Assembly (NCBI GenBank): GCA_023249635.1
Contig: JAHFCH010000002.1
Location: forward strand, 46,179 to 110,178
Length of the DNA: 64,000 nt
Direction: 5' to 3'
Source: Fibrobacterota bacterium
GTDB taxonomy: Bacteria; Fibrobacterota; Fibrobacteria; UBA11236
This document shows positions 47,183 to 62,633 of the stretch, in pieces (position 1 is the stretch's first letter; each line of letters opens with the position of its first letter). The translations under genes were made by a program, and so were the position numbers. The notes below the pieces were generated by a model. The model worked only from the letters and a program-made list of their open reading frames with translations, searched no databases and was not told the DNA's origin.

Positions 47183-48714
47183 GCGAAATCCTCGCGGCCC
47201 GCGCGGTGACGCAAGGCGGCGGACAATTCCCTTTCCAGGTTTTCCATCGCGAGCGGTTTGGCGATGAAGGCATCCATGCCGGCGGCGATACAGCGGTCGC
47301 GTACCCCGGTCGAGGTGTTCGCCGTAAGCGCGGCGATCCAGGCGCGACCGCCGGTGCGGAGCTCCTCCGCGCGGATTGCTTCGGTGGCGGCGAATCCATC
47401 CATCAAAGGCATCTGGCAGTCCATCAGGATCAAGTCATAGGCCGTGCGCCCGCAGGCCACCACCGCCTCGCGGCCATTGTCCACGATCTCGGCCTGGTAC
47501 CCCAACTTTTCCAGATAACCCGTCACGACGATCTGGTTTACGGGATTGTCTTCCACCACGAGTATGCGGAAAGGCCCCGGCTCGCGCCGGCGTTCGATAC
47601 CCTGGGCGCGCACATCGCCCCCTTGGGCGGCCGGACCGCGTGCAGAACCCGGGCCATCGGCGCGAGGCGAATCGGACGCGCGTCGATCACCGTCCACGGG
47701 GTGCAGGCCTTCCAGGGGACGGGCTAGCCAATCCTGTTCCGTTCCCTCGGCCCGCTCATGCAAATCGGAGAGGCGGCGCACCGAGGCGGTGATCAAACCC
47801 AGGAAACGCTGTTGCCCCGCGTCCAGGGCGGTGCGGCCGAGCAGTCCGGCCATGCGGGACAGGCCGTGCAGGGGAAGGCGCATCTTGCGATAGGCCGAAG
47901 CCAGGCGTCGCCGTTGCTGGTCGAGCCGCGCTGCCGCGGTTTCGATGCGTTTGCGCGCGGTGATGTCCTTGGCGAAAATGGCGATGCCGCCCACCTCGCG
48001 GCCGGAGAGGATGGGATGGAACCAGACCTCGAGCACCTCGCGGCCGCCGGTCCAATCCAAGGCTTGCTCCTCCTGGAAGCGCTCCAACCCGCGCACCCGC
48101 TCTACCGCGCCGCGCCAGCGCGATTGCAGGGCGGGCGCGAGACGATCCAGGAAGCAGACGCCTTCGACCATGGGTTGGCCGGTGAGCTTGAGGCATAACA
48201 GGCTGGCGGCGGAATTGAAAGCGAGCACGTTGCAGTCCAGGTCCATGGACCAGATGGCATCCGAGGTATTCTCGATGAGGCCATGGAGGTTGGCGCGGTC
48301 GCGCCGGATGCGCGCTTCCGCCGCGCGCAGGGCGGCGGTCTCGCGGAAGGAGTTCAAGGTGCGCATGACGGTGGGAATGAACCGCGACATGCTGGATTTG
48401 AGCACGTAGTCGGCGGCGCCGTTCTTGAGCGAGTCGATGGCGAGTTCTTCCCCCAAACGGCCGGAGAGGAATATGAACGGCACCGTGGGGCATTCGCGGC
48501 GGCACAGCGACAAGGCCTTGAGGCCGTCCCCGTCCGGGATCTCGTGATCGGAGATGATCAGGTCGTAAGTCTGGGCCCGTAATGCGGTTTCGAATTCGGC
48601 GAGGGACTCGGCGCGGCGCAGCACGATCTGCATTCCTTGCGCCTTGAGCAACGTTTCTGCCATCTCCGCGAAAAAGGGATCATCTTCAAGGTGGAGGATG
48701 CGTAATGCTTGCAT
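47179..48714 (-). CDS. REC-PAS-degenerate HisKA-REC signalling protein
   Basis: N-terminal LHLEDD..IISD receiver; PAS; AYRKMRLPLHGL at the H-box position; no HATPase; C-terminal VVEDN..ILMDCQMP..KP receiver. Confidence 0.85.
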   Translation of the reverse strand: MQALRILHLEDDPFFAEMAETLLKAQGMQIVLRRAESLAEFETALRAQTYDLIISDHEIPDGDGLKALSLCRRECPTVPFIFLSGRLGEELAIDSLKNGAADYVLKSSMSRFIPTVMRTLNSFRETAALRAAEARIRRDRANLHGLIENTSDAIWSMDLDCNVLAFNSAASLLCLKLTGQPMVEGVCFLDRLAPALQSRWRGAVERVRGLERFQEEQALDWTGGREVLEVWFHPILSGREVGGIAIFAKDITARKRIETAAARLDQQRRRLASAYRKMRLPLHGLSRMAGLLGRTALDAGQQRFLGLITASVRRLSDLHERAEGTEQDWLARPLEGLHPVDGDRRASDSPRADGPGSARGPAAQGGDVRAQGIERRREPGPFRILVVEDNPVNQIVVTGYLEKLGYQAEIVDNGREAVVACGRTAYDLILMDCQMPLMDGFAATEAIRAEELRTGGRAWIAALTANTSTGVRDRCIAAGMDAFIAKPLAMENLERELSAALRHRAGREDFA

Positions 48715-48979
48715 GTTCGCGGGCCGCTCAGGAGCAAGTATAGACGCCGGCGACCCATTCCGCGCAAGCGGCATCGGCGTCCGGCACGCACACAATGTAA
48801 GCGGGGGGTCAAATGGAAGCGCGACGATTCGCCTTGGCCGCGCCGGAAGGCCCACGAAGGCAGGTAACGCCGGAAATACCGTTCCAGTTGCGTTTCAAGG
48901 GTTCCGCGGCCCGTTTAAGGCATCCGGATCAGCGGGGCGTAACGTTCCGGTTAAACCGGGAAGGGGGCTGGAATACGGG

Positions 48980-51900
48980 TTACCGATCCGCGCCGGGCGG
49001 AGTCGCGCGGATTTCCAGGCGGGACTGTCGCGCGTGGAACGATCGGGACGCGGCTTTCGGCATCCGCGTGATCACGCCGCGGCGGCCTTCCGCGCTCCAC
49101 AGCAGGGCGCCGTTCCACGACCACAAGCGCGCCGAACCGCCTTGGGCCCAGAACACCTCATCGCCCGCGACCACGGCCGGACCGATGGCGAGACCACCGC
49201 GCCGCAAAGCCAGGGCGATACGGCCGATTTCCACCTTGGCCTTGGCGCAATGGACCTCGCCCCCGTTGTCCCCGCATAGGGTAACTTCCAGGGTACCGTC
49301 CTGCACGGGGTTGGAAAGGATCAGGGAATCGGCGGAGCCCAGGGTATCGCACATGCGCGCGGAAAGGCTCCAGCGCCGGTTAAGGGGCGGATGATAGGAA
49401 GCGGCGGCCAGGGCCGCGGCATTGGACACCGTGGGGCGCAACGCCAAGGCCAGGTTCCCGTTCCAGGCCTGCTGGGACGGCAGGGTGAAGAGCGGATCGG
49501 GGATGGCCTCCTTGACCAGTACCTTGACTTCCCGGGAACGCCAGGCGCCGTTGAACCGGGCGCTGAAGCGGTAGCCCAGTAAGGAGTCCGCGGCTACGCG
49601 GGGTGCGGTAAAGGCTTGCGCCAAAGCCTTGGCATCGGCGGGAGCGGGTCCCGCCAGCGCCTCCCATTTCCAATCGTCGGCGCAGCGCAGCGAAGCGGCG
49701 AGGGAGAAACCCTGACCCTCGTCCACCGCCACGGAATCGGCCGCGACCTGCAACAGCGTGTCGCAGAGCAGGGAGACCCGGGCCGCGCGCGAAGTATCCG
49801 TTCCGTAGGCATTGGATGCGATGCAGAAGAAGGCCGCGCCATCGTCGGCGGCGGAAATCGCCTGCGTCAACACAGCCTGGCTGTCCAGTGCCGCCGCGAC
49901 ACCCTGCCGGTACCATTTATAGGCGAAGGGAGGCGTGCCCTGCAGACTCACGGAAAAGGCGGCCGTCCGGTTCGGCAATAGCGAGGTGTCACGGGGACCT
50001 GCGGTTACCCGAACGGGAACGTGCACGGTCAGCACCGCTTCACGCGAGGCCTGGTTCCCATAGGCATTGGAAACCACCGCGCGGAAATGCGCGCCGTCGT
50101 CGGCGGCGGCCGCGACCAGGTTGAGCGCTGGAGAGGTCCCGATGACGGTGGAATTCCCCACCCGGGTCCAGGCGTAGGTATAGGGTGGCGTGCCTTCGAC
50201 CGCGACCGCGAAGGCAACCGGCGCGCCGGCCAAAACGGCGGTATCCATGGGCTGGGCGGAAACCTTCGCGGGTACCCGTACCGTAAGGGTTACCGGGGAA
50301 GTGTTGGTATCGCCGTTCACGTTCGAGATATGGCATTGGTATTGCCACCCTTCCATGGTGGTATCCGCATTCGCGATGGCCAGGGTCGTGTCGGTGGAAA
50401 GCACCGCGGATTGCCCCACGCGCGTCCAGGCGAAGGCCAGCGGGAACGCGCCTATGGCGCCTACGCTGAAAACCGCGGCTGCCCCGCCCTGGATGGCCAT
50501 GGCATCAACCGGCGCGCGGTAGATGGATGGCGGGGCCAAGGCGAAACTCCAGCGACGGTTGCTTCCCGCGTCGGGGCAGAATGCGTCCGCGATGCCGATC
50601 ACCCCGGTAGCCTGGCTGTTACCCAAGTTCACGTAGGATGCCGTCAGGGACGCGCCGCCGAAAGCGCTCCAATCCCGCGTCGCATCCAGGTCCAAGGGCA
50701 ATCCGGCCTTGCCTTCCAACCGCAGGTTCTGGCCCGCCCGCAACTCCGCGTCCCCCAGGCCGGTAAACGTGAGCGCTACCGCGCCCGCCTTCAGCTCCAT
50801 GTCCCCGGAAACGGCGAGGGAACGCCCGTCCAGGGCCAGGGTTCCGCCCTGCATCGCGAACGAGGTCGCTTTGAGATTCGCCAACAAGTTCACCGATCCC
50901 CCATCCGCGACGGTAATGGCGCCGAGAGAACCATTGTCTCGCGAGGTTTCCTGCAAGCGCATGCCGTGGGAAGAGGCGTCCAACTTCCATTGCGAAGTAC
51001 CGGGTTCGATGCGCTTGATGGGCCCCAGATCGAGTCCCCCATGCAACCGGAATATCGCGCTGCCCAGCCGCAACGCCAGCGCCGGCGCGCTTCCGCCCGG
51101 ATGCACGGCTTGCAAATCGGCGGCGAGATCGGCATCCACCGGCCCCTGGAAATCGATTATCCCTTCGCCGGTAGCCTGGGAAGAACCGTCGGAAAGCACC
51201 AAATTGCCGAGCACGTGCAACTGTTGCGAAGCATTGCCTTGCACGACCAAGGTGCCGCTATAACCCGATCGTGGGGAAGCTTCCAGGCGCAGGTCATGGA
51301 ACACCGCTCCGGCATAAGAGAAGGTCGAGGTCTTGGGTCCGGTCGCATCCGCCATGATGCTGACGTATACGGCGCCGCCGAAAACCGATGCGGGCCCAGC
51401 CCCGGTAAAATCGGCATTCCCGCGCACCGTCAGGGTGGTCGCAACAGATTGCAGGATCGAAGTTCCCGCGGCCGTCGCCAGGGAAGTGAAGGCCGCGGAA
51501 AGGCCTCCCAGATCCAGGGAGCCGGTCTCGAGGGTGAATGCCCGCGCGTTCAAAGGGTAGCCTAGTAAGGTGAGGGTCCCGGCTCCGCGCTTGATCAGGT
51601 CGGGCAGAAAGCTCTTGTCCCCGGAACGCAGTGTGCCCGTGCCATTGCAGATAAGGGTGCCTTGCCCGCGATTGACCACCCCGAAGGCCGAGTTCGAGTA
51701 GACTTCGAGTTTGGCGCTCCCGAAGGAAAAGATGCCCCCGAATCCCGTGAGATCGAATACATTCGTGACGAGATCCGATTCCAGGTAAGCATCCGTCTTC
51801 CCACCCGCGGTGGTCCCATCGAAATAGAGATCCAGGTAGCGCGAAGCCTTGAGAGGTCCATCGGCCTGTACGTCGTCGAAGGCTAAAAGACCCGAGGAGG

Positions 51901-52675
51901 AAGTCTGGCTTCCCACCGCGAATAATCCGACTTGCGAAGACGCGGCCGCTTGTTGGGTCGTGCTGTTGGCGTACATGATCCAGGGGGTGGAAACCGAGAG
52001 GCGATAGAAGGCGAAAAAGCGGTTTCCGCTCCGCGCGGCGCGGAGAAAGGCATCCTGCCCTGCAGGGATAGCCGGTCCCGCGGTGGACGGTAGGGCGTCG
52101 AAGCTGCCCACCGAACCTTCGGTATCGAAACGAGCGCAAAGATGGCCATCGCTGACATAGACCGCGAAAGCGCCGCCCGCCGAGGGCGCGGTGAAATCGT
52201 TCAGCACCAAAATTCCCTGCTGCTGTTCCGGACCCGTGGTACCGGGGGCGAGTACGCGTACCGAAAAATCGAAGTCACCGGTGAGATCGGCACGGTATAA
52301 CGAAGTGACGGTGAAGTCGTCCACGCTCCCGAGCTTGGAATCGAAAGCAATGGCATCCACTGCGAGGGAGACGACGCCGGCTTGGGTGAGCGTGGCGGTA
52401 CGGGTCACCCAGGCCGGCAACTTTTGGCCGCCGTCAAAGGCATCGTCCCGATCCGAGACGGCGAACAGGCCGCTGCCGTCCGTCGCGGCAGTCCAGTAAT
52501 GGGAATGATCGATGGGGGCCACGCCATCCGTCATGACGGAATCGGGATTCCAATGCCAACGGGAGGAGACCGCGGATGCCTGCGACCAGGCCAAACCCAG
52601 GCATGGCAGCAAGGCACGCCAAGGCGCGCGTCCCAGGGCAAATGCCGAGAACACGTTCACGGAAACCTCCAGCAT
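48980..52675 (-). CDS. Large secreted ConA-like/beta-helix/Ig-repeat protein (3 Ig repeats)
   Basis: Signal peptide; GDFDFSV..FLRAARSG..GLFA..FDD; Gly/Leu-rich beta-helix-like repeats; three P..P.D...W...C Ig units; shared C-module. Confidence 0.8.
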   Translation of the reverse strand: MLEVSVNVFSAFALGRAPWRALLPCLGLAWSQASAVSSRWHWNPDSVMTDGVAPIDHSHYWTAATDGSGLFAVSDRDDAFDGGQKLPAWVTRTATLTQAGVVSLAVDAIAFDSKLGSVDDFTVTSLYRADLTGDFDFSVRVLAPGTTGPEQQQGILVLNDFTAPSAGGAFAVYVSDGHLCARFDTEGSVGSFDALPSTAGPAIPAGQDAFLRAARSGNRFFAFYRLSVSTPWIMYANSTTQQAAASSQVGLFAVGSQTSSSGLLAFDDVQADGPLKASRYLDLYFDGTTAGGKTDAYLESDLVTNVFDLTGFGGIFSFGSAKLEVYSNSAFGVVNRGQGTLICNGTGTLRSGDKSFLPDLIKRGAGTLTLLGYPLNARAFTLETGSLDLGGLSAAFTSLATAAGTSILQSVATTLTVRGNADFTGAGPASVFGGAVYVSIMADATGPKTSTFSYAGAVFHDLRLEASPRSGYSGTLVVQGNASQQLHVLGNLVLSDGSSQATGEGIIDFQGPVDADLAADLQAVHPGGSAPALALRLGSAIFRLHGGLDLGPIKRIEPGTSQWKLDASSHGMRLQETSRDNGSLGAITVADGGSVNLLANLKATSFAMQGGTLALDGRSLAVSGDMELKAGAVALTFTGLGDAELRAGQNLRLEGKAGLPLDLDATRDWSAFGGASLTASYVNLGNSQATGVIGIADAFCPDAGSNRRWSFALAPPSIYRAPVDAMAIQGGAAAVFSVGAIGAFPLAFAWTRVGQSAVLSTDTTLAIANADTTMEGWQYQCHISNVNGDTNTSPVTLTVRVPAKVSAQPMDTAVLAGAPVAFAVAVEGTPPYTYAWTRVGNSTVIGTSPALNLVAAAADDGAHFRAVVSNAYGNQASREAVLTVHVPVRVTAGPRDTSLLPNRTAAFSVSLQGTPPFAYKWYRQGVAAALDSQAVLTQAISAADDGAAFFCIASNAYGTDTSRAARVSLLCDTLLQVAADSVAVDEGQGFSLAASLRCADDWKWEALAGPAPADAKALAQAFTAPRVAADSLLGYRFSARFNGAWRSREVKVLVKEAIPDPLFTLPSQQAWNGNLALALRPTVSNAAALAAASYHPPLNRRWSLSARMCDTLGSADSLILSNPVQDGTLEVTLCGDNGGEVHCAKAKVEIGRIALALRRGGLAIGPAVVAGDEVFWAQGGSARLWSWNGALLWSAEGRRGVITRMPKAASRSFHARQSRLEIRATPPGADR

Positions 52676-52792
52676 GAGGAAGGCCCCACGCCTTAGGAAA
52701 AGTAACCTAGGGGGGCCTGGAAACCGTGACGCCGGTCACGGGTTTCCAAGAGCTTTTAGGGGCTTGGGAGCACCGACTCCCCTGAATCCACT

Positions 52793-55700
52793 TTATTTGA
52801 GGATTTCCAGACGTGCGCCGCCGCGGTATAGCGCCTTTGCAGTCACATCGGGAATGGCCGTGGTCAAGCCTGCGCGGCCTTTTCCCTGCCAGAGCAGGCG
52901 GCCATCGAAACCCCAGACGCGGGCCTGGGCATCGGCGTTCCAAACGAGCATGCGGCCTTCCAGGGTCACCGGGCCCAACCTCGCCAGACGGGCGGCCAAG
53001 CGCAAGGCCAACCGGTTGACGGCCAGCTCGTGGGCCTGGCAGAGCACCGCTCCCCCGTTGTCCAGGCACAGGGTAACTTGCATGATACCGTCCTGGAAGG
53101 GATCGGAAAGCGATAGCGAATCCCCGGCTTGGGCGGAATCGGCCAGAGCCGGCGCCAGATACCAACGATACCGGAAGGGAGGCGCGTAGGGCGATGCCTT
53201 GAGCGCGGCGGTATTGGTGATGGTGGCCTTGACCACGTAGGGCTTGGCGCCTTGCCATTTGGCCGAGGCCGGCAAGGTGAATTGCGGATCGGGAATGGCC
53301 TCCTTGACCCGCACCACTACGTCCTTATAGGTAACCCCGCTCGCGTATTGGGCCGTGAAGCGGTATACCAACACCGATTCGGCCAGCACCCGCGGCGCGG
53401 TGAATTCGAGGGAAGCGGCTTCCGGATCGAAGATGCGGGGCGCGGGCCCGGAGACGACGGTCCATTGCGTCGATTGCGAACAGGCGGCCGTGCCTTTGAA
53501 TACGGCGGGTTGACCCTCGTCTACCGTCAGCGTATCCGGAGCCACCTTGAATACGCTATCGCATACCACCACGGACAGCCTGGCCTCATGGCTGGTATCC
53601 GCGCCGTAGGCGTTCGCAACGATGACCGTGAAGAGCGCCCCGTCATCCTTGAGCTTCACCGTGTCGATGGTATACGTCGAATCACGGGACAGGACTGCGG
53701 TATCGCCCTTGCGTTGCCATTTGAATGCAATGGGCATGGCGCCCACCGCGCTTACCTTGAAGACTGCCTTTTTTCCGGGCCCGACGGCCACGTTCGCGGG
53801 CTCAGTCAGGATAAACGCCGCCTGCACGACCACGAGTTTGCTGTCCTTGCTGCGGACGTTGCCGTAGCCGTTGGCGACCAGGCACGTATACACGGCTCCC
53901 GTCGCGGCCAGGGGAACGGAATCGAGCGTCAGGACGGTGTCCCGGGAAAGCACGGTGGTATCGTTCTTCTTCGTCCATTCGTAACGGAGCGATGGGGTGC
54001 CCCCCGCGCCGATGGAAAAACGCGCGGATTGGCCCGCGACCGCGACCACGGAGTCCTTGGGCTGTTTCGTGATGAAGGGCGGCTGCACCACCCCCAGCAC
54101 GGCTTCCCTCGTAACTATGGTTCCGTATTTGTTGGAAACGATGCAGTAGAATCGTGAACCGCTATCCGCGGGTACGGTCGGCGGGATCACGAAGAGGGAA
54201 TCCTTCCCGAGCGTATCCGTCCGGCCGACCTTTCTCCACGCGAAGGCGAGCGGCGCGGAGCCCATCCCGCGTACCTTGAAAGTTACCGGTTGCCCGGCCA
54301 GTACGGTGGTGTCCCGGGGCCCGAAGGCGGTATCCGGCGTTTGCCCGACGACCAGGGAAGCGGCGAGGGAGCTCTCCTGCCCATAGGCGTTGGAAACCGC
54401 GCACAGGAATTTCTTTCCGTTGTCGCCGACGTCGGTCTTGAAGGAAAGCGCGGAATCCTTGGCGAGCGTATCCGGAGCGCCTTCCCGGAACCAGGCGAAG
54501 GCGATGGTCCCGGTGCCGGAGGCGGCCACGGCGAAGCGCGCGAGCTGGCCGGCCGCTACATCCACGTTCTTGGGTTGCGTCGTCACCTTGGCCGGGAACC
54601 GCAAGGTCAGCAGGGCCTTGCGCGAAATGGCGGAGCCGAAATCATTGGATACCGTGCAGGCCCACGTGGCCCCATCCTGGGCCGCGGCGGTGGCCGCGAG
54701 CTTGAGCACGGCATTGGTATCCACCGTGGCCGTGTCCCCGGTCTTGCGCCAGCGGAAATGGAATGGGGGCGTCCCGCCCGCGGTCACTTGGAATTGGACC
54801 TGATCCCCCACCGTCACCGCCGCGTCCGAGGGTTCCCCGGCGATATAGGCCGGCTCGTTTACGATCAACTCCCCATCCTGGCTCTCCAGACTTGTGACGG
54901 CGTTCGCGACGGTGCAGTAGTATTTGGCGCCGTTCAACGCCGGAGTCCCTTTGATCGAGATCAAGGTATCGTTGCCGAGCACGGTGGTATCGCCGCGCTT
55001 GCGCCAAGCGTAGGCCAGCGGCGCGCTGCCGGCGGCCTTCACGGTAAAGACCCCGTTCTGGTCCTTGAGGATGGTGATCTTGGCGGCGGGCTGCCGCACG
55101 ATGGAGGGCGGGGACAAGGTGAAGGTCCAGCCCGAATTACCGCTCTTGTCGTTGCAGGCGGCCGTGGCCGCGCCCGCGGATCCGGTCGCCTGGGAATTGC
55201 CGATATCGGCGAAGTCCGCCGTAAGCGCTCCTGCGGCGAAGACCGACCAGGCCGCGGCGGGATTCATCCCCAACTGCGCGCCTGCCGTCCCGGTGAAGGC
55301 GATATCCCCTCCGGCCCGGATCTCCCGGCCGGCCAGCCCTTGCAGCGAGTTGGCCGATCCGTTGGTAACCGTGAAGGTACCCGTAACATTCACGTTATTC
55401 CCGTTCAGGTTGAGGGATCCCGCCGATTGCGCGAAGGACGCGGCCTGCAAGACCGATCCCAGCGAAACGGCGCCGCTACCGGTATGCTTGACCGGGCCCA
55501 ACGATGCTCCGGCGGAAAGCGACTGGGACGCGGAGGAAGCCAGCTCCAGGGAGGAATTGTCGGCCGCGAATCCGGCGGGGAAGGCAAGGGTTACGTTGCC
55601 CTTGGCTATCCAGGCGCCGTTCCCCATCCGCACTTGCAGCGAGTTGGATCCGGAACCGTTATCGACGCGGTCGATATTCCCGTCCACGGTGACATTGGCA

Positions 55701-57205
55701 TTACCCGGGCGGAAGTCCACGATTCCGATCAGGCCCGCGACGGCTTTCTCATCCGTTAAACGCAGGTTGCCTTTTACGGTGAGCGCCGCTCCGCCCACGG
55801 CGATGCGGGCGGGATTCGCCGCAGGCACCGTCCACAACGAAAGATGATTGAAGGCTGCCGCGCCCGTCGTGAAAACCACGTCGTTCTGGGCCACCGGGTT
55901 TCCCACGCTGCGTATCTGCACCGTGCCCGCCGCGGGTAAGGAGGTTACCCCGGAGAAATTCGCGTCCCCGGTAAAGGCCAACGTGTCCGTCGCGTTCAAT
56001 CCCGTAAAGAGTGCGGATGCGGATACCAGGCCGGAGAATTCATTGTAATGCCCGCCTAGATCCACGCTGCTTCCATTGACAGTCAGTACGCCCGCCTTAA
56101 CCGGACGGGTAGCGAGAGTCAGGATGCCTCCGCCGGTTTTGTTGATGGGAGGAAGCGTTGCGCCCGCGCGTGGGGTCAGGGTTTGGTTCCCGGCCCCGAA
56201 CGCCAGCGTCCCCGTGGCAGCGTCAATGACCGCCGTAGCGGCGAAGTCGGCATTGCCGGAAAGCGCCAGGGTAGCCGATTTGAATCCGAACGTACCCGAA
56301 TAGTTGAGCAAGGAAAGGCTTTTCGCCGACATGGATGCCGTCATGCGCGCGTCCGCGTCCGCCGTGGGCCCCGATCCGTTGAAGGAGAGATCGAGATTGG
56401 TCGGCTGCATGTCTCCGCCGCCCTGGAAATCGTCGAAGGCCACGGTGGAAGCCACGTTCACGTCATGGGAGGAAACGAAGAGGCCCACCTGGACAGGGCT
56501 CCCTGCATTCAAAGGCGAACCGGTTCCCAGCGACGTCCAGGTATCGGCAAGATTGGCGCGCCAATACCCTGAATAACTACCGCCGTGCTTGACCGCGCGC
56601 AGCCAGACCGGATACTTGGTCAAGGTCTGCTTCGCAGCCGGACCTTCGGGCCAATCGTACTGGCCCACCGGAGCGGCGGAATCCCATTGGATCTTCAACC
56701 CATGCTCCGGGGTAACGATCACGGCGAAGCATCCGCCGTTGGCGGGATCCGCGAACTTGTTCATCACGATGATTCCGGCTTTGGACCATTCGTAAGCCTC
56801 GGTTTGCGAGACCACCTTTACCGATACGTCGAAGTCGCCGGGGTAATCCTTATAAGCCGCTGCGTATTGGTTGTCCACAGTCCAGACATCGGCACCGCGG
56901 GCGGTGACCGCCAGTTGGCCGCCGGATTGGACGAAGGTGGCCTTGTTGGCGACCGCTGCGCGCGTCGAATCCAAGGTTTGCCAACCGCTCATGGAAGCGG
57001 CGCTGAAGTCGTCATCCAAGCCGGATTTGGGCCGCGCGCCTCCGCCATCGGCGCCGGAGCTCCAGTTGTAGGACTTGTGCAATTCCCCGCCCGCGTTCAG
57101 CAGGGGAGCGGAAGGATTCCAGTAGAAGGTCTGCGCCAGCGTGGCGGAAGCATAAACGAGGCTTAAGGCTACGGTCCGAAAAAAAACGACACCAATCTTC
57201 GGCAT
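52793..57205 (-). CDS. Large secreted ConA-like/beta-helix/Ig-repeat protein (6 Ig repeats)
   Basis: Signal peptide (TLA-QT); GADVW, GDFDVSV, WSKAGI, PVWLRAVK, VGLFVSSH, AFDDF; six Ig units; shared C-module. Confidence 0.85.
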   Translation of the reverse strand: MPKIGVVFFRTVALSLVYASATLAQTFYWNPSAPLLNAGGELHKSYNWSSGADGGGARPKSGLDDDFSAASMSGWQTLDSTRAAVANKATFVQSGGQLAVTARGADVWTVDNQYAAAYKDYPGDFDVSVKVVSQTEAYEWSKAGIIVMNKFADPANGGCFAVIVTPEHGLKIQWDSAAPVGQYDWPEGPAAKQTLTKYPVWLRAVKHGGSYSGYWRANLADTWTSLGTGSPLNAGSPVQVGLFVSSHDVNVASTVAFDDFQGGGDMQPTNLDLSFNGSGPTADADARMTASMSAKSLSLLNYSGTFGFKSATLALSGNADFAATAVIDAATGTLAFGAGNQTLTPRAGATLPPINKTGGGILTLATRPVKAGVLTVNGSSVDLGGHYNEFSGLVSASALFTGLNATDTLAFTGDANFSGVTSLPAAGTVQIRSVGNPVAQNDVVFTTGAAAFNHLSLWTVPAANPARIAVGGAALTVKGNLRLTDEKAVAGLIGIVDFRPGNANVTVDGNIDRVDNGSGSNSLQVRMGNGAWIAKGNVTLAFPAGFAADNSSLELASSASQSLSAGASLGPVKHTGSGAVSLGSVLQAASFAQSAGSLNLNGNNVNVTGTFTVTNGSANSLQGLAGREIRAGGDIAFTGTAGAQLGMNPAAAWSVFAAGALTADFADIGNSQATGSAGAATAACNDKSGNSGWTFTLSPPSIVRQPAAKITILKDQNGVFTVKAAGSAPLAYAWRKRGDTTVLGNDTLISIKGTPALNGAKYYCTVANAVTSLESQDGELIVNEPAYIAGEPSDAAVTVGDQVQFQVTAGGTPPFHFRWRKTGDTATVDTNAVLKLAATAAAQDGATWACTVSNDFGSAISRKALLTLRFPAKVTTQPKNVDVAAGQLARFAVAASGTGTIAFAWFREGAPDTLAKDSALSFKTDVGDNGKKFLCAVSNAYGQESSLAASLVVGQTPDTAFGPRDTTVLAGQPVTFKVRGMGSAPLAFAWRKVGRTDTLGKDSLFVIPPTVPADSGSRFYCIVSNKYGTIVTREAVLGVVQPPFITKQPKDSVVAVAGQSARFSIGAGGTPSLRYEWTKKNDTTVLSRDTVLTLDSVPLAATGAVYTCLVANGYGNVRSKDSKLVVVQAAFILTEPANVAVGPGKKAVFKVSAVGAMPIAFKWQRKGDTAVLSRDSTYTIDTVKLKDDGALFTVIVANAYGADTSHEARLSVVVCDSVFKVAPDTLTVDEGQPAVFKGTAACSQSTQWTVVSGPAPRIFDPEAASLEFTAPRVLAESVLVYRFTAQYASGVTYKDVVVRVKEAIPDPQFTLPASAKWQGAKPYVVKATITNTAALKASPYAPPFRYRWYLAPALADSAQAGDSLSLSDPFQDGIMQVTLCLDNGGAVLCQAHELAVNRLALRLAARLARLGPVTLEGRMLVWNADAQARVWGFDGRLLWQGKGRAGLTTAIPDVTAKALYRGGARLEILK

Positions 57206-57437
57206 GCAAGCACTCCAAATCCCCCTCGTTGAATGTTGATGGCGTAGCCCGACGCTTGTCCAGCGGCAGCGGCTACGAACGGAGCTTGAAGATCGCGGGA
57301 GTCCCATCCCCTTAAGACTTCCGCCATCCGCCCCTCGCGCCATCCCAATCCCATCGGCGCGCGGAGCAGAGTAATAATAGTTACGATGCGCCTCCCCCTC
57401 CGGGTGTTAAGTGGCTGAAAATCCTATAATTCTGAGA

Positions 57438-58400
57438 GTGCTTCCCCGGTCATATGCCATAGTCCTTCTCCTCGCCGCGGCGGGCCTCTGGGGCCTGAGC
57501 ATTCCGGTCATGAAGGCGCTGGGCGTAGAGCAATCCTTGCTCGCGCCCGGGACCGGCAGCCTGTCGGCGACCCTGGCCTCCCTGGCAGCCCGCTACGGCA
57601 TGGCTATGCTGGCCGTGCTGGCCGGGGCGCGCATCTCCCCTCTCAGAATTAATCGGGAGGAATGGAAGCACGGCGCCATCCTCGCCGTATTCACGGGCGC
57701 AGGCATGGCCCTACAGGTGGACGGGCTCAACTATACCTTGGCCTCGACCGGCGGATTCCTCATCGCCTTGTATTGCGTGTTGGTCCCCCTCATCGCCTGG
57801 ATGGCGGGCGAACGCCGCATGACCCTGATCCTGTTCGCTTGCTGCCTGCTCGTGCTCGCCGGATTGGCGGTACTTACGGGCTATGATCCGCGCAAATTGG
57901 GATTGGGGCGCGGTGAATGGGAAAGCCTCGGGGCCGCTTGCATGTTCGCGGTGCAGATTTACCGGGTGGATCGCATTCCCGCCGGCGGGGCCGATCCCAT
58001 GCGGGTCACCGCCGTTTTGCTGGGGTTGGTCGCAATAGGCAGTTTCGCCGGCCTGGCCCTGACGCCCGGAGGACCGGGAGCCCTGGCCGCCATTCACGCT
58101 TCCCCGCGCGCGTTTCTGCTCACCCTGGCGCTGGCCTTGTTCGGCACCGCCGCGCCCTTCGCCCTCATGAATCGTTTCCAGGCGCGGGTGGGATCGGTTG
58201 CCGCCGGTTTCATCTATTGCTGCGAGCCCCTGACCACGGCCCTGGGCGCTTTTTGGCTGCCGCAATTGCTGGTGCGCGATCCCGCGGATTATCCGAATGA
58301 ATCGGCCACGCCCAAGCTGCTGCTCGGGGGCGCCTTGATCCTGGCGGCGAACCTGTTGCTGACACGGGACAAGGGCGGCAAGCCGCCGCCCGGTACCTGA
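57438..58400 (+). CDS. DMT/EamA family transporter
   Basis: About ten TM helices; LWG, GLNYT.AS..GFL, GE..L, AGFIY..EP motifs. Start is GTG 57438 or 57411. Confidence 0.88.
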   Translation: MLPRSYAIVLLLAAAGLWGLSIPVMKALGVEQSLLAPGTGSLSATLASLAARYGMAMLAVLAGARISPLRINREEWKHGAILAVFTGAGMALQVDGLNYTLASTGGFLIALYCVLVPLIAWMAGERRMTLILFACCLLVLAGLAVLTGYDPRKLGLGRGEWESLGAACMFAVQIYRVDRIPAGGADPMRVTAVLLGLVAIGSFAGLALTPGGPGALAAIHASPRAFLLTLALALFGTAAPFALMNRFQARVGSVAAGFIYCCEPLTTALGAFWLPQLLVRDPADYPNESATPKLLLGGALILAANLLLTRDKGGKPPPGT

Positions 58401-58411
58401 CCGGAAAACCC

Positions 58412-61400
58412 TCAGCGCAGCGAGGCGCGAAATTCCAGGCGCGCGGTACGCGCCCGCAAGGCATGATCCGCCGCGGAGGACGGCTGGGCGTAGGCGCCCC
58501 GTGCTCCGAATGCCTGCCACAGGGTCCTTCCCCGCCAATCCACGATGCGAGCGAGCCCAGGGGCGGTCCACCGCAGCCCGCTCCCTTCGCGGTACAGGGG
58601 TCCGGCATGCAAAGCGCCGCGACGCAGGGAGACGCTGGCGCGCTCCACCGCCACGATTACCTTGGCGCAGGACTGCGAGCCGCCGTTGTCGGCGCATAGG
58701 GTCACTTCCAGGTTACCGTCTTCGCCCGGATCCTTGAGCACCAGGGAATCGGCCCCGATGGAGGTATCCGCGACATTGGGAGCGATGGACCAAAAGTAAC
58801 GCAGAGGATACCCCGGGAAGGCGGCCAGGGCGGCGGCATTCACGATCACGGGCCGGATGACGCGCGGCGCAAGGCCGTTCCAGGTAGCCTGGGCAGGCAG
58901 GGAGACTTTGGGATCGGGTATGGTATCCCGGACCCGGACGGTTACTTCCTTCGACTCCCAGGTCGCGCCGTAGCGCGCGCTGAATTGCAGAACCATGATG
59001 GAATCGCCTTTGACACGCGGGGCTGTGAAAACCAGCGTATCCTGCGAGGGATCGAGCAAGCGCGGCACGGGACCGGAGATGGGGGTCCAGGATACCTCTG
59101 AAGCGCAGCCGGCCTTGGCCCCCAGCGATACGGTTTCACCTTCCTTGACCGTCATATCGGCGGGGGGCGCGAACACGCTGTCGCAAGCCCGCACCGTGAG
59201 GTAGGCCATGCGCGTGGTGTCCTTTCCGTAGGCGTTGGAGACGATGGCGTAGTAGGCCGTACCCGATTGCCCTTCCTTGACCGTATCGAGCACCAGGGAA
59301 GTATCCGTAGAGAGCACGATGCTGTCTCCCTGCCGACGCCATTCGTAACTCAGCGTGGGCGTGCCTTGGGCCGCCAAGGAGAACGCCACCTTCCACCCGG
59401 GCTTCGCCAAGGCGTCGGTGGGTTCCCGCGTGATGCCGGGCGCGACGGGGGGTTGGTAGAAGGCCCAATTCTTGTTGCCCTTCTGATCGATACAGCCCTT
59501 ATTGGCCGTACCCGGCTGGCCCAGGCTCGCATCGCTGTTGGCGATATCGGCGGAGTCCGCGATGAGGGCCTTGCTGACCTTGAGAGTCCAGACCGTGGAG
59601 GGATTCAGTCCCAGATTCCCGGCCGCCGTGCCCGCGAAGCTGGCGTTACCCTCGACGGTCACGGTACGGCCGCCGAGGTTGAGCAGGGTTTGCGCGCCGC
59701 CCTTGGTCACGCTCAGATCGCCTTTGAGCGCCAGGTTGAAACCGTTGAAATCCAACGAACCCCCGCTCTGGCGTAAGGAGGTGGCAGCCAGCGGACCGCT
59801 CAGCATGATCGCTCCGGCCGCGTCATGCTCTACGGCATACAACGGCCCCTCGCTCACGTAAATGGTCTGCGCCGGTCCGGAAGTCCGGGTAAACCGGAAA
59901 GTGGATTTGTCCGCGCTGCCGTTTCCCCGCAGGGAAATGTTCACGTCGCCCTGGGAAGTCCAAATCCCATCGCCCATGTACAGCATCTGCCAGTTGGTGG
60001 CGGCCGCCTCCTGGATGAGGTTGCCACCGGATACGGTAACATTCGGGTTACGGGTGCGGAAATCCAGGAAGCCGTCGTATCCGCTCGGGGCTGTATGGTT
60101 GCGGAAGCTGAGCCCGTTGGATGCGGTGAGCGAACCCGGCCCTACGATAAGGGTCACGTCGTTCAAACCGGTGGCCCAGGTCCACAAGGTCAGCCGGGGA
60201 AAGGTTTTCCCGCCGGGATCGAAGTTGATGGGGGTTCCGCCGTTGCCCATCGCCTTGATGGTCACGAAGCCCAGGGGAGCGTTGAGGGCGGCCAGGCCGC
60301 TGAAATCAGCGTCGCCGGAAACGATCAGGCTGTCGTCGGCGCCCAGGCCTTCCAGGGTGCCGCCGGTCGAAGCCAAGCCGTTGACTTCGGCGCCGTTATT
60401 GTTCAGATCGAAGGTGCCGTTGTCGATGCGCAAGGAGGCGGCCAGCACCGGGCCGACCAGGGAAAGCTTTCCGGAACCCGTTTTGCGCAGGGCCGGCATG
60501 GCGTCGCCGGCGCGGGTCCATAGGGTATCCTGTCCCGAGCCCGTAAAGACCAAGGTTCCCGTACCCGGATTCACGCTTTGCATGCCCGGGATCAGACGCA
60601 GGCTTCCGGAAAGCGATAGGGAATAGGAATTGAAGGAAAGTTTTCCGCTATATCCGGTGAAGTCCAGGCTGTGCGCGGCGAAATCGCCAGCGAGTACCAC
60701 GTCCACATCGGCATTCGCGCCGCTGCCGTTGAAAGCATAGTCCAAGGCGGGATTGGAAATGTCCCCGCCCGCGCGGAAATCGTCGAAGGCGGCGGCCGTG
60801 GTTTTACGGGGGACTCCCGCGCTGTCTACGGCGGTCACGAACAATCCTATCTCGGAGTTCCCTCCCGCGGTGGTTCCCAGGGAGGTTTGCGGCGTTCCGA
60901 TGGCGGTCCAATCCAGCGTGGTGTCGGTACGGTAAAAGGCCCTGATCTGCGTGCCGTCCTTCGCCAGGCGCAACCAGATGGGGAGCGGCAAGGCTGTCGC
61001 GAACTGGGAGGTGGTGTGGTCGATGTTTCCGATAGGCTGCAGATCGCCCTGGTTCCATTCGAAGATGGCCCCGTTCTTGGGGGTTATCGCCACCAGGGCC
61101 ACGCCGCCCTGGGAATAATCGGAAAAGGAATTGGCCATGATGATGCCGGCCTTGGACCAATCATGGGCCGCGAACTGGGAATCCACGCGCACCGTCACAT
61201 CGAAGTTACCCTTGATATCGGCGCGCCTCACACCCGTCAGGAAATGCTTCTCCTTGCTGAAATCCTCGCCCTCTCCGGAAAGGATGAGTTTGCCGTTGAC
61301 CACGGCCAGCTTGCCCGTGCTGTCGATGCCGTCCTGATCGAGGAATTTCCAGGTGGTGAGGGTATCCAGCGCCGGCGCGGAAAAGCCTTCATCGCCCGCA

Positions 61401-61570
61401 CCGGCGGGCCGCCCGCCGATCCCGTTTTGGGTCGCGGACCAGTTGTACGATTTGGAGATGCCGCCGGCATTGCTCAGAGCGGGATCGCGGTTCCAGTAAT
61501 AGGTTTGCCCGAATGCGCATGCGGACCACGCCGTCACGGCCAGAAGAATACGTTTCAAAAACATTTTCAC
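58412..61570 (-). CDS. Large secreted ConA-like/beta-helix/Ig-repeat protein (1 Ig repeat)
   Basis: Signal peptide (AFG-QT); QTYYWN..KSYNWS, GNFDVTV, WSKAGI, PIWLRLAK, AFDDF; one Ig unit; shared C-module. Confidence 0.85.
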   Translation of the reverse strand: MKMFLKRILLAVTAWSACAFGQTYYWNRDPALSNAGGISKSYNWSATQNGIGGRPAGAGDEGFSAPALDTLTTWKFLDQDGIDSTGKLAVVNGKLILSGEGEDFSKEKHFLTGVRRADIKGNFDVTVRVDSQFAAHDWSKAGIIMANSFSDYSQGGVALVAITPKNGAIFEWNQGDLQPIGNIDHTTSQFATALPLPIWLRLAKDGTQIRAFYRTDTTLDWTAIGTPQTSLGTTAGGNSEIGLFVTAVDSAGVPRKTTAAAFDDFRAGGDISNPALDYAFNGSGANADVDVVLAGDFAAHSLDFTGYSGKLSFNSYSLSLSGSLRLIPGMQSVNPGTGTLVFTGSGQDTLWTRAGDAMPALRKTGSGKLSLVGPVLAASLRIDNGTFDLNNNGAEVNGLASTGGTLEGLGADDSLIVSGDADFSGLAALNAPLGFVTIKAMGNGGTPINFDPGGKTFPRLTLWTWATGLNDVTLIVGPGSLTASNGLSFRNHTAPSGYDGFLDFRTRNPNVTVSGGNLIQEAAATNWQMLYMGDGIWTSQGDVNISLRGNGSADKSTFRFTRTSGPAQTIYVSEGPLYAVEHDAAGAIMLSGPLAATSLRQSGGSLDFNGFNLALKGDLSVTKGGAQTLLNLGGRTVTVEGNASFAGTAAGNLGLNPSTVWTLKVSKALIADSADIANSDASLGQPGTANKGCIDQKGNKNWAFYQPPVAPGITREPTDALAKPGWKVAFSLAAQGTPTLSYEWRRQGDSIVLSTDTSLVLDTVKEGQSGTAYYAIVSNAYGKDTTRMAYLTVRACDSVFAPPADMTVKEGETVSLGAKAGCASEVSWTPISGPVPRLLDPSQDTLVFTAPRVKGDSIMVLQFSARYGATWESKEVTVRVRDTIPDPKVSLPAQATWNGLAPRVIRPVIVNAAALAAFPGYPLRYFWSIAPNVADTSIGADSLVLKDPGEDGNLEVTLCADNGGSQSCAKVIVAVERASVSLRRGALHAGPLYREGSGLRWTAPGLARIVDWRGRTLWQAFGARGAYAQPSSAADHALRARTARLEFRASLR

Positions 61571-61832
61571 CCGCTCCCAAGCAAAGACAACCCGTAGGGA
61601 GTCGGCATAGCGCCGAACCCTTGTTAACCCCCAAGATTATGTCCCCTCGAAAGAAATCGTCCGCAGCACAAAATAGGAACGTAGGGATGCGGCTTCCAAG
61701 GAAATCATGCCGCAATCGCGTGATAAATTCCCGGCCAGGAACGAATTGCATCAATATCCGCAAATATTTTTCCCTAACGGGTCGCCCCTGGATATTGGTA
61801 TTTGAAGCCGGGGCATGCCCCGAGGAGGTCAC

Positions 61833-62522
61833 ATGCGCGTCTTCACTAAATTCACTGGTTTCTGCCTTGCGGTCGCGGTCTTCGCCGGCTGCGCAAACAT
61901 GAACCGTGCCGGCAAAGGCGGCCTCATCGGCGCCGGAGCGGGTGGCGTGGTGGGCGGAATCATCGGCAAGGCTTCGGGCAATACGGCTGCGGGAGCGATT
62001 ATCGGAGCGGCCGTGGGCGGCACCGCGGGCGCGGCCATCGGCCATTATATGGACAGGCAGGCCGAGGAACTGCAACGCGATCTCAAGGATGCCAAGGTGG
62101 AGCGCGTGGGCGAGGGCATCAAGATCACCTTCAACTCGGGCATCCTCTTCGATGTGGACTCGGATAAGCTGCGGCCCCAGGCCACGGCCAATCTCCAGAA
62201 CCTGTCCAAGGTGCTGAACAAGTACGATGATACCGAGATCATGGTGCAGGGCCACACCGATAATACCGGTTCGGACGATCACAACCTCAAGCTCTCCGGG
62301 AGGCGCGCCGACTCCGTGGGCGATCTGCTCAAAAGCGATGGTGTGAAAAGCGGTCGTATCGCCGAGTCCGGCATGGGCGAAGAGCATCCCGTGGCCGATA
62401 ACGCCACCGCGGACGGACGCCAGGCCAACCGCCGCGTGGAAGTGGCCATCTGGGCCAACGACAAGCTCAAGTCCGCGGCCAAGGACGGAACCATCAAGAC
62501 CGCCGCCGTCAGCGAGGAATAA
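61833..62522 (+). CDS. OmpA-family lipoprotein with glycine zipper (YiaD-like)
   Basis: Lipobox FAGC; GA..G zipper, YMDRQ..EL, GILFD, GHTDNTG, LSGRRA, NRRVEV; RBS GAGGAGG. Confidence 0.94.
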   Translation: MRVFTKFTGFCLAVAVFAGCANMNRAGKGGLIGAGAGGVVGGIIGKASGNTAAGAIIGAAVGGTAGAAIGHYMDRQAEELQRDLKDAKVERVGEGIKITFNSGILFDVDSDKLRPQATANLQNLSKVLNKYDDTEIMVQGHTDNTGSDDHNLKLSGRRADSVGDLLKSDGVKSGRIAESGMGEEHPVADNATADGRQANRRVEVAIWANDKLKSAAKDGTIKTAAVSEE

Positions 62523-62531
62523 CCTGTCCAG

Positions 62532-62557
62532 GGCGTGGACGGAATACCGTCCACGCC
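62532..62557 (+). terminator. Strong hairpin after the OmpA gene
   Basis: GGCGTGGACGG-AATA-CCGTCCACGCC, a perfect 11-bp stem; no immediate U-tract; the arm CCGTCCACG recurs at 62568. Confidence 0.5.
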
Positions 62558-62633
62558 GGGCCTCGCCCCGTCCACGTATTTGCGTTTGACCTTTCCCTTC
62601 CCCTAAATCCCCCCGTTTTCGCGACTCCGGGCT

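Follow-up and report, generated by a model that had tools for sequence, protein, structure and literature searches.

Three paralogous proteins of a Fibrobacterota bacterium as candidate lectin-type adhesins with stalks of one, three and six Ig domains

Locus and Domain Architecture

The window, namely the whole stretch of 64,000 nucleotides analyzed here, harbors three long open reading frames (ORFs), P0001, P0002 and P0003, in an array that is split by a gene for an EamA-family transporter on the opposite strand (Table 1). The initial annotation had proposed three paralogous genes with Ig stalks of 3, 6 and 1 repeats; the ORFs lie exactly where it had placed them, and paralogy is supported by pairwise BLASTP (E 1e-125 for P0002/P0003, 3e-111 for P0001/P0002 and 3e-74 for P0001/P0003), with identities of 29–37% in the N-terminal part and 37–42% in the C-terminal part. 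The label "giant", also given at that stage, is generous for proteins of 1052–1516 aa. Translation of P0002 probably starts at Met47 (57205), which would yield a protein of 1470 aa, matching the database copy P0015 (1470 aa). A scan of positions 47000–62600 returned 2 promoter-like sites (3.1 expected) and 10 terminator-like sites (14.6 expected), and since both counts are below expectation, it does not inform on operon structure.

All three proteins share the same order of parts, consisting of a signal-peptide-like segment, a W-rich cap, a ConA-like head, a right-handed beta-helix, Ig domains, a C-module and a basic tail. Two AF2 models of P0003, covering head and helix and the C-terminal part (mean pLDDT 88.7 and 89.6), display a ConA-like sandwich, a beta-helix and four C-terminal beta-sandwich domains, so that both the ConA-like domain and the beta-helix-like region of the initial annotation were recovered, while the signal-peptide-like N-termini, the cap motif and the basic tail can be read directly in the sequences. 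The Ig counts were reproduced by phmmer, a family HMM and Pfam I-set/Ig_3, and Ig number is indeed the main architectural variable, among the paralogues and also among orthologues.

Table 1. Genes and protein modules of the array; positions refer to the window.
Feature	Position	Strand	Residues	Basis or remark
P0001, three-Ig paralogue	48980..52675	-	1231 aa	Long ORF
P0001 basic tail	48983..49228	-	1150-1231	pI 12.0
P0001 C-module	49232..49765	-	971-1148	phmmer E 6.9e-43
P0001 three I-set Ig	49772..50533	-	715-968	Pfam; HMM domains
P0001 beta-helix	50543..51784	-	298-711	phmmer E 1.1e-17; family HMM
P0001 cap and diverged ConA-like head	51785..52570	-	36-297	Family HMM
P0002, six-Ig ("long") paralogue	52793..57343	-	1516 aa	ORF
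P0002 basic tail	52796..53026	-	1440-1516	pI 11.7
P0002 C-module	53030..53563	-	1261-1438	phmmer E 3.4e-47
P0002 six I-set Ig	53570..55111	-	745-1258	Pfam Ig_3 E 2.3e-32, I-set E 1e-30; six HMM domains
P0002 beta-helix	55121..56344	-	334-741	phmmer E 1.4e-60 to P0003 helix; family HMM
P0002 cap and ConA-like head	56345..57133	-	71-333	Family HMM
EamA-family transporter gene	57411..58400	+		Pfam EamA, E 1.1e-14
P0003, one-Ig ("short") paralogue	58412..61570	-	1052 aa	ORF; orthologues 54-63% identical
P0003 basic tail	58415..58645	-	976-1052	pI 11.9; hairpin motif D-W-R-G-R-x-L-W
P0003 C-module	58646..59185	-	796-975	AF2 model; Foldseek to tandem-Ig arrays
P0003 single I-set Ig	59186..59455	-	706-795	Pfam I-set E 1e-5; VIA-align
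P0003 right-handed parallel beta-helix	59456..60700	-	291-705	AF2 model; VIA-align
P0003 W-cap and ConA-like (DUF1349-like) head	60701..61507	-	22-290	AF2 model; VIA-align; Foldseek
P0003 predicted signal peptide	61508..61570	-	1-21	Read from sequence; end AFG|QTYYW

The ConA-Like Head

As modeled, the head has a DUF1349-like fold of the lectin/CBM type, in agreement with the lectin-type head claimed at the outset. VIA-align superposes the P0003 head on the DUF1349 protein 3mep with Z 18.2 (rmsd 2.5 Å, 168 of 179 residues), on GH43 C-terminal domains with Z 16–17.8 and on CBM66 (4b1m) with Z 15.6, and Foldseek returned 3mep (TMt 0.73) and 3o12 (TMt 0.69). The three heads thus have the same fold as DUF1349 (PF07081), the GH43 C-terminal ConA-like domain (PF17851) and CBM66, with high structural scores, but differ from them in that they have an N-terminal W-rich cap, sit at the tip of a beta-helix and have no Pfam match at E≤0.1. 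A paralogue elsewhere in the genome, C112, reaches 31.6 bits to DUF1349, under the gathering cut-off of 32.4 bits.

A profile of head plus helix matched 6768 proteins at E≤1e-3, and 16 of the 22 head-type matches scanned pass the DUF1349 cut-off. These relatives carry the domain as an appendage of subtilases, GDSL/RGI-lyase, a pectate-lyase-like domain, GH141, GSDH and FG-GAP proteins, and a Streptomyces alpha-N-acetylglucosaminidase has a head-type domain at its C-terminus. Because secreted enzymes repeatedly carry it as an accessory domain, the DUF1349-type head is probably a binding module; against a lectin role, the literature that uses the term DUF1349, as far as listed, suggests no ligand or function for it.

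The heads of P0002 and P0003 are 37% identical, while that of P0001 shares 25–28% with the other two, and with identities this low (25–37% overall) not only the reach but also the ligand probably differs from one paralogue to the next. The earlier proposal that the same head type is displayed at graded distances therefore holds for the shared fold but less so for the sequences, as P0001 is also deviant at 31 of 55 near-invariant columns. A gradient of distance would moreover depend on C-terminal anchoring of the proteins, which we infer by analogy.

The Beta-Helix

The right-handed parallel beta-helix spans about 415 aa and ends in C-x-D-x3-N-x2-W-x-F, a motif that had been noticed initially, although its true spacing is one position shorter than the D....N..W.F given then. 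Solved beta-helices superpose on the P0003 helix over 227–265 residues, which applies to the fold level only and implies no enzyme family membership: VIA-align gave Z 13.2 for both the alginate epimerase AlgG (4nk8, 233 residues) and EtpA (8cpk), and Z 12.9 for both HMW1 (2odl) and the phage tailspike CBA120 TSP3 (5w6f), with EtpA and HMW1 aligning over 262–265 residues, Z values of about 13 falling in the range that the tool itself calls unspecific for repeats.

These alignments bear on the question of whether P0001–P0003 could be secreted polysaccharide-active enzymes, in which the helix would be catalytic (lyase, hydrolase or epimerase), the ConA-like domain a CBM and the Ig chain a linker. 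Such a role would fit the alignments with AlgG and the tailspike depolymerase, the fact that relatives of the head serve enzymes as accessory modules, pectate-lyase-like and GH141 proteins among them, and the polar conservation in the helix, where D482, K342 and Q547 never vary and H561 hardly does. However, the TPS domains of adhesins score equally well, neither Pfam nor NCBIfam places an enzyme family, or any family, over the helix of the three proteins, and none of 15 helix relatives scanned has a Pfam family there. Furthermore, a profile search found the C-terminal part of the helix repeated up to 34 times within giant single proteins, which is typical of structural repeats, and the invariant residues are mostly G, L, F, A or W, with few polar ones. 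We therefore regard an enzymatic role as distinctly unlikely and prefer to see the helix as a rod.

Right-handed parallel rods of similar size occur in EtpA and HMW1, two-partner/autotransporter beta-helix adhesins. In contrast to these, the proteins described here have no TPS domain, no PATR match in Pfam and no beta-barrel translocator domain, and their helix is internal, with a lectin-like head on one side and an Ig stalk on the other. The helix contains rungs of the form K-x-G-x-G-x-L-x-L, which we take to resemble autotransporter-associated repeats; an identity with the PATR repeat (PF12951) was considered and dropped, as no Pfam match at E≤0.1 exists in any of the three proteins. Two other proteins of the genome, C64 and C28, carry the same helix module together with canonical tails for type IX secretion (T9SS). 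Head and helix modules are not private to the family, and their relatives number in the thousands.

The Ig Stalk and the C-Module

The Ig domains are of the I-set type, with Pfam I-set (PF07679) scores of 42.9, 106.1 and 25.9 bits for P0001, P0002 and P0003, respectively (cut-off 23.7). In a wide VIA-align search, which covered residues 1–271 of the C-terminal model, the P0003 Ig aligned with I-set domains of titin, MALT1 and telokin at Z 11–13 and 1.7–1.9 Å, with Z 13.3 at 1.7 Å for 3bfo and Z 11.9 for titin I1. Within one protein the repeats are 32–44% identical, and the first and the last repeat are positionally conserved. At the DNA level no tandem repeat of Ig domains is present in 48900–61600, where Tandem Repeats Finder gave five trivial arrays of 15–20 bases. 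As the repeats are old and lack a DNA tandem repeat, the variation in length, which comprises 1, 2, 3, 4 and 6 Ig domains among paralogues and orthologues, is evolutionary rather than a slippage-type switch. The intimin/invasin, staphylococcal and RTX adhesins offer a parallel, in that more or fewer Ig-like repeats give them a different reach; repeat number likewise varies between the paralogues and orthologues studied here, whose repeats differ from those systems in being old and without a DNA tandem repeat.

The I-set chain is followed by the C-module, which had been described as a common C-terminal module. It is shared by all three proteins, but it consists of two further Ig/PKD-like domains and is found on 10 other ORFs of this genome as well, among them DUF2341+LamG_3 proteins. 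In the AF2 model searched with Foldseek its fold is that of Ig-like sandwiches, and its cysteine pairs are conserved, with invariant Cys columns in the family alignment. Sequence matches are faint: one paralogous C-module has a sub-threshold match to PF22352 (K319L-like PKD; 18.2 bits, cut-off 27), and residues 739–949 of P0003 match the C-terminal region of myxosortase-dependent M36 peptidases with 27.9 bits. The idea that the C-module is a dedicated sorting module was abandoned, as it lies mid-protein in P0026 (residues 376–541 of 1016 aa).

The Basic Tail and Type IX Secretion

The tails, which are the last 77–82 residues, have a pI of 11.7–12.0 and 13–14 Arg plus Lys, and in this respect they agree with what defines T9SS type A signals, i.e., an extreme C-terminal, basic segment of about 70–100 residues; for the canonical T9SS tails of this genome the median pI is 10.4. 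The genome is heavily invested in T9SS. It encodes SprA (635 bits) and PorU (449.5 bits), the latter adjoined by a second PorU-like ORF, while PorV is detected only below cut-off (92 vs 250 bits). TIGR04183 has 30 matches in the genome, with 26 ORFs over cut-off, and an own-genome tail profile, iterated to convergence, recovered about 219 ORFs with a canonical tail. As read from sequence, the motif, the position and the charge of the tail in P0001–P0003 resemble those of a T9SS C-terminal domain, yet every HMM test for such a domain fails. The three proteins are absent from the 30 TIGR04183 matches; none of 11 family tails matches TIGR04183 or PF18962, even at E≤10 (NCBIfam, Pfam; two chance-level matches otherwise); type B (TIGR04131) gave no match in NCBIfam scans of the whole proteins or the 11 tails; and the converged profile scores the three tails with E 1.1, 12 and 72. 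Profile-to-profile comparison by hhalign, however, places the motifs D-x-x-G-R and L-x-x-G-x-x-L-x-F in register with the T9SS tails of the genome (E 2.6e-4, probability 42%), and a language-model search with the tail alone leads to Por_Secre_tail clusters at 0.91–0.92, these matches sharing 149–159 features, short of the 170 that true members of a family typically share. A word-based search with P0003 residues 968–1052 retrieved only P0003 itself among 520 candidates and is therefore uninformative on the tail elsewhere.

A different view is that the tail is no T9SS signal at all, but a family-specific basic domain that keeps the protein on the cell by attaching to anionic polymers of the envelope (LPS, capsule or peptidoglycan) or serves another export route, in which case the proteins may be periplasmic. 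Besides the failed HMM tests and the high charge, this would account for the presence of the full tail on only 3 of 27,231 ORFs of the genome, namely P0001–P0003, for a predicted tail of five strands and a short helix without the last strand of the canonical tail, and for the DUF2341+LamG_3 proteins (at least 6), in which the same C-module is followed by no more than a short W/Y-D-A-[RK]-G-R stub of the hairpin. The canonical T9SS C-terminal domain, an Ig-like beta-sandwich of the 3+4 type, is described with seven strands (PMC11285876). Against this view, the motif register and the language-model neighbors favor a relationship to T9SS tails, the three protein sequences show no transmembrane segment, no lipobox and no further sorting signal of a known kind, and T9SS is a heavy investment of this genome, so that we consider it rather unlikely and retain a T9SS-like tail as the preferred reading.

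Large, modular, Sec-exported cell-surface proteins with long Ig-like chains and a small basic C-terminal beta-domain, as those described here would be, are GhpA of Aureispira (PDB 9fly) and SprB and RemA of Flavobacterium, which we take to be T9SS cargo, and Foldseek matched the C-terminal model to, among others, the base of GhpA (E 1.9e-12). The tails described here differ in scoring as neither a type A nor a type B sorting domain. Within the same phylum-level group, cell-envelope enzymes of Fibrobacter succinogenes carry a basic terminal domain (BTD/Fpm-1), which has been proposed as a T9SS signal and, like our tails, is a highly basic domain at the C-terminus of secreted proteins for which a part in anchoring at the surface is proposed (PMC6851124). 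Compared by that description, some of the F. succinogenes domains are recognized by TIGR04183, whereas the tails described here do not (PMC6851124).

A farther-reaching speculation, to which we give little credence, is that the D-x-x-G-R-hairpin tail represents a second lineage-specific sorting or anchoring signal apart from the approximately 219 canonical tails, perhaps processed by the second PorU-like sortase, which would put a small set of rods with lectin-type heads, in three lengths, into distinct layers of the cell's outer matrix. At the other end of the proteins, the family N-termini read AxA|QT[FY][FY]W as consensus, and the signal peptides, the conserved cysteine pairs and the T9SS-like tail together suggest that the proteins are exposed at the surface.

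Distribution of the Family and Divergence of P0001

All full-length members that the analysis found belong to a single genus of uncultivated Fibrobacteres, where the locus has one to three copies. Synteny extends to six related genomes with one to two copies and 1, 3, 4 or 6 Ig domains, which speaks for selection on the locus; by BLASTP synteny the EamA neighbor is conserved in the five related loci that contain it, and the P0003 orthologues occupy the syntenic position after EamA. P0001 is an extra, fast-evolving copy: it has no positional counterpart in the six related loci, and its branch, the longest in a quick tree with SH-aLRT support, measures 2.67 changes per column (median 0.27), in line with its deviation at the 31 of 55 columns mentioned above, which are invariant in the other nine sequences.

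These same observations would be expected if only two of the three genes were functional and P0001 were a recent extra copy under relaxed constraint and nearing loss, so that the series 3, 6, 1 would be no designed gradient. Yet its frame of 1231 codons is intact, all of its modules are still recognized by the family HMMs, its C-module shares 42% identity with the P0003 C-module, and its divergence is concentrated in head and helix, which fits a change of ligand as well as decay. We hold this reading to be rather unlikely. Possible decay of P0001 rather than specialization counts against our best reading.

A literature search for this architecture found no paper describing it, and neither Pfam nor NCBIfam has a family that would cover head, helix, C-module or tail, in keeping with the initial view of an uncharacterized family. 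Its parts are familiar and its proteins of an ordinary kind, although the family itself is undescribed; modular surface proteins whose Ig stalks vary are common.

Proposed Function

On balance, we lean toward P0001–P0003 being non-enzymatic lectin-type adhesins that are anchored C-terminally and whose stalk length is set by Ig number. The protein would be exported by Sec, and its C-terminal end would stay attached, by analogy to other T9SS cargo, leaving the head to point outward. The head may bind a glycan or another polymer, which probably differs between the paralogues along with the reach, while the helix rod and the Ig chain would hold it at a distance fixed by Ig number. With about 4 nm per Ig domain, a typical domain size, the one-Ig and six-Ig forms would differ by about 20 nm.

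If true, a little-known phylum whose bacteria degrade polymers would gain an adhesin family not described before, and its 1, 2, 3, 4 or 6 Ig domains would provide a natural series for the question of how stalk length relates to attachment, although no general concept is changed by these findings. The beta-helix module, which has no Pfam model, and the DUF1349-type head are worth defining as domain families, and so is the basic tail, which is T9SS-like yet missed by current models and hence bears on the prediction of T9SS cargo outside Bacteroidota. Among the sequencing runs listed as matches, none of those containing the gene is an RNA run; three DNA runs of one groundwater study contain it, and one of these may be its source.

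Three Diverged Paralogues With a Common Module Order

The three long minus-strand ORFs agree exactly in position with the initial annotation (see the table of features), and pairwise BLASTP (E = 3e-111, 1e-125, and 3e-74) identifies their products, P0001, P0002, and P0003, as true paralogues, as had been claimed. Identity is 29–37% across the N-terminal 700–800 residues and 37–42% in the last ~340. The array is not contiguous, since an EamA-family gene separates P0002 from P0003. P0002 most likely starts at Met47, as the database copy comprises 1470 aa and a hydrophobic leader begins at this residue.

Features of the window, its source genome (G000) and a related genome (G011)
Feature	Location	Strand	Remarks
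P0001 ORF	window 48980-52675	minus	1231 aa
P0002 ORF	window 52793-57343	minus	1516 aa
P0003 ORF	window 58412-61570	minus	1052 aa
EamA-family transporter gene	window 57411-58400	plus	between P0002 and P0003
DUF2341/Laminin_G_3/C-module protein	window 29817-31586	plus	
ORF upstream of histidine kinase gene	window 35769-37250	plus	493 aa
ORF upstream of histidine kinase gene	window 38121-40652	plus	843 aa
Conserved downstream neighbour	window 62661-63407	plus	248 aa
Titin-like I-set Ig array	G000:C4:11148-15047	plus	7 Ig
Titin-like I-set Ig array	G000:C104:1492-3978	plus	5 Ig
PorU-like ORF pair	G000:C210:5305-13025	minus	side by side
One-Ig orthologue (L044)	G011:C34 8854-11715	minus	953 aa

By phmmer and family HMMs, all three proteins consist, in the same order, of a W-rich cap with a ConA-like head, a β-helix, I-set Ig domains (three, six, and one, respectively), a C-module of two Ig/PKD-like domains and a basic tail, which bears out the shared architecture and the Ig counts first read from the sequence. 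The family is uncharacterised, as supposed: Pfam recognises the Ig repeats alone (I-set, Ig_3, and Ig_2), and NCBIfam yields one weak, sub-threshold match, of P0003 residues 739–949 to the C-terminal region of sortase-dependent M36 peptidases. The family, though undescribed, is built of modules that are widespread and whose folds are known, and its members would be surface proteins of a familiar bacterial kind.

Family N-termini, read by eye, show a hydrophobic stretch followed by AxA|QT[FY][FY]W, and the C-module holds two conserved cysteine pairs, with which an extracytoplasmic location would be in line. Directly behind the predicted signal-peptide cleavage site, most members have Gln and two have Glu; such a Gln recalls the "Q-rule" of pyroglutamate N-termini in Bacteroidetes.

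Predicted Folds and a Model of the Protein

The modules proposed from sequence were also seen in AlphaFold2 models of P0003, which cover residues 22–705 (18 aligned sequences, pLDDT 88.7, pTM 0.82) and 706–1052 (26 aligned sequences, pLDDT 89.6). The first ~250 residues of the N-terminal model form a ConA-like sandwich, which matches best the DUF1349 protein ECA2234 (3mep; Z 18.2, rmsd 2.5 Å over 168 residues), followed by C-terminal domains of GH43 xylosidases (Z 16–17.8), the lectin domain of galactocerebrosidase (Z 16.1) and CBM66 (Z 15.6), with Foldseek in accord. Model residues 270–684 form a right-handed parallel β-helix, for which AlgG, the TPS domains of EtpA and HMW1 and a phage tailspike score equally (Z 12.9–13.2), a level that is unspecific for repeat folds; an enzymatic helix, rather than a rod, is the rival reading at this point. 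The C-terminal model shows four β-sandwich domains in a row, namely the I-set Ig (Z 11–13 and 1.7–1.9 Å against titin, MALT1, and telokin), the two Ig-like domains of the C-module and the tail, whose ~65 ordered residues make up five strands and a short helix.

The simplest model is a surface protein with a lectin-type head on a rod and stalk. Its C-terminal end would anchor the protein at the cell surface, and the rod and Ig stalk would hold the head at a distance that depends on how many Ig domains there are. Any length would be estimated from ~4 nm for each Ig domain and ~0.48 nm for each rung of the helix. The earlier adhesin or lectin interpretation is reasonable and stands in part: the analysis shows the folds, module order, paralogy, Ig counts, conserved locus and presence of T9SS (type IX secretion), while we infer export and its route, anchoring, orientation, display and ligand binding. 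As to the idea that one head type is displayed at graded distances, the Ig number does vary (three, six, and one); the heads, however, are just 25–37% identical, hence different ligands at different heights seem more likely.

The Same Modules in Other Proteins

The C-module is found on 10 further ORFs of the source genome. Six of the nine scanned are ~600-aa proteins in which DUF2341 and Laminin_G_3 precede it, one encoded in the window and the others on contigs C250, C127, C189 (two), and C281, and the C-terminus of these proteins is a short basic stub containing W/Y-D-A-[RK]-G-R. This family has at least six copies in the source genome and many in related genomes. We considered the C-module as a signal, which was dropped because it lies mid-protein in the database relative P0026; it is instead read as stalk.

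Head and helix recur in the source genome on a giant protein of contig C112, which is cut by the contig end and carries PA14, DUF2341, and LamG, and on C321, while C116 encodes a stand-alone 319-aa protein with a head/helix match. Among 1.84 billion representatives, the head-plus-helix profile matches 6768 proteins at E ≤ 1e-3 and 593 at E ≤ 1e-30, and 10 of the best 150 of the 6768 match it whole in one stretch. The last ~170 helix residues (profile positions ~510–683) form a repeat unit that is present in many giants, up to 34 times, among them P0029 (6376 aa), P0030, P0032, and P0044. In none of 15 helix relatives scanned does a Pfam family extend over the helix; in the giants and helix relatives P0030, P0032, P0047, P0049, and P0152 Pfam detects solely the first ~50 positions of "Amnionless", a W-rich motif that, by its likeness, we take to correspond to the cap.

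The DUF1349 cut-off is passed by 16 of 22 scanned head relatives, where the domain is appended to subtilases, GDSL/RGI-lyase, pectate-lyase-like, GH141, GSDH, FG-GAP, and PQQ-propeller proteins, one of them with a canonical Por_Secre_tail. As the domain is appended to such proteins, the head likely acts as a binding module. This DUF1349 head and a β-helix module that lacks a family model are among the most useful by-products of the analysis. Titin-like I-set Ig arrays also occur on two other source-genome ORFs, which have unrelated ends and no canonical type IX secretion (T9SS) tail.

The Basic Tail and Type IX Secretion

The tail is the weak point of any claim that these paralogues are surface proteins. 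The source genome encodes the T9SS components SprA (635 bits) and PorU (449.5 bits), 26 of its ORFs exceed the cut-off of the T9SS sorting-domain model TIGR04183, and a profile built from the genome itself and iterated to convergence detects ~219 ORFs with a canonical C-terminal domain, 17 of them of at least 1000 aa, so that the T9SS secretome is large given a genome size of 6.75 Mb. Two other source-genome proteins that share the helix module of the paralogues (on C64 and C28) carry canonical tails. The PorU gene adjoins a second PorU-like ORF, which at 356 bits falls below the NF033707 cut-off that the first exceeds, and which could serve a second tail class.

None of the three paralogue tails is among the TIGR04183 matches or the 219, the converged profile scoring them at E 1.1, 12, and 72, and no T9SS family is found in 11 of 11 family tails in Pfam and NCBIfam, even at E ≤ 10. 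The full tail is confined to P0001, P0002, and P0003 among 27,231 six-frame ORFs of the source genome. These results favour the rival reading of the tail as a basic anchor unrelated to T9SS. Other features point towards T9SS. The pI of the tail is ~12, where canonical tails have a median of 10.4. Profile-profile comparison with the T9SS tails of the source genome gives E 2.6e-4 at a probability of just 42%, with two motifs in register: the hairpin D-W-R-G-R-x-L-W of the tail with V-Y-D-x-x-G-R-x-V, and the last strand L-x-x-G-x-A-R-L-E-F with L-x-x-G-x-Y-F-x-x-V. When the tail by itself is the query of a language-model search, Por_Secre_tail clusters are retrieved at 0.91–0.92, with fewer shared features than is usual for true members. 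From the failed HMM tests, taken together with the motif register, these matches, the position at the extreme C-terminus and the pI, the tail is probably a divergent T9SS-type signal rather than a member of the TIGR04183/PF18962 family. The basic terminal domain of F. succinogenes, itself known for long, has been proposed as a T9SS signal, on the grounds that it overlaps TIGR04183 in part and that mature proteins lack its peptides (PMC6851124). A tail that resembles a T9SS signal yet is missed by current models is a further useful by-product.

Evolution of Ig Number and Conservation of the Locus

A word-based search of 5.8 billion clusters retrieved 16 further full-length or nearly full-length relatives, two of them from named "Fibrobacteres bacterium" MAGs, with one (11 proteins), two (1 protein), or four (4 proteins) Ig domains. 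At related loci the number is one, three, four, or six, so that it varies among orthologues as well. In a quick ML tree with SH-aLRT support, the one-Ig proteins form a clade to which longer forms are basal. The Ig repeats of one protein are 32–44% identical with no tandem repeat in the DNA, and the first and last are positionally orthologous, the last being 63–66% identical between orthologues. The repeats are thus old, and in the course of evolution internal copies were gained and lost, which sets this variation apart from a slippage switch.

Among 40 related genomes, all 14 of the same genus show some match, whereas the one other genus with matches (G019) has them on short contigs only; these tallies take in one genome flagged as unpublished (G012), on which no specific claim rests. 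All full-length genes at the examined loci come from the same genus, to which the family is nearly restricted. The DNA is contained in groundwater metagenomes of one study.

The locus is conserved in the order histidine kinase, HrpB, MotA, MotB, PAS response regulator, a long gene (as P0002), EamA, a short gene (as P0003) and an OmpA-like lipoprotein. Its proteins have six and one Ig domains in G014, four and one in G010, four only in G013, four in G007, and three in the short position in G006. G011 has a single one-Ig orthologue with a shortened helix, matched by the helix HMM in two overlapping pieces, so rod length can vary too. No related locus examined has a gene at the position of P0001, whose branch in the quick tree is very long (2.67 against a median of 0.27) and which deviates at 31 of 55 columns common to the other nine sequences; the rival to a working third paralogue is that P0001 is decaying.

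The 248-aa ORF downstream, which has no Pfam family, is a conserved neighbour in the five related loci that contain it, and combines a hydrophobic leader, an acidic stretch and a Gly/His/Arg-rich C-terminus. Two ORFs lie upstream of the histidine kinase gene: one of 843 aa, in which Pfam recognises no family, and one of 493 aa, which has cadherin-like β-sandwich domains.
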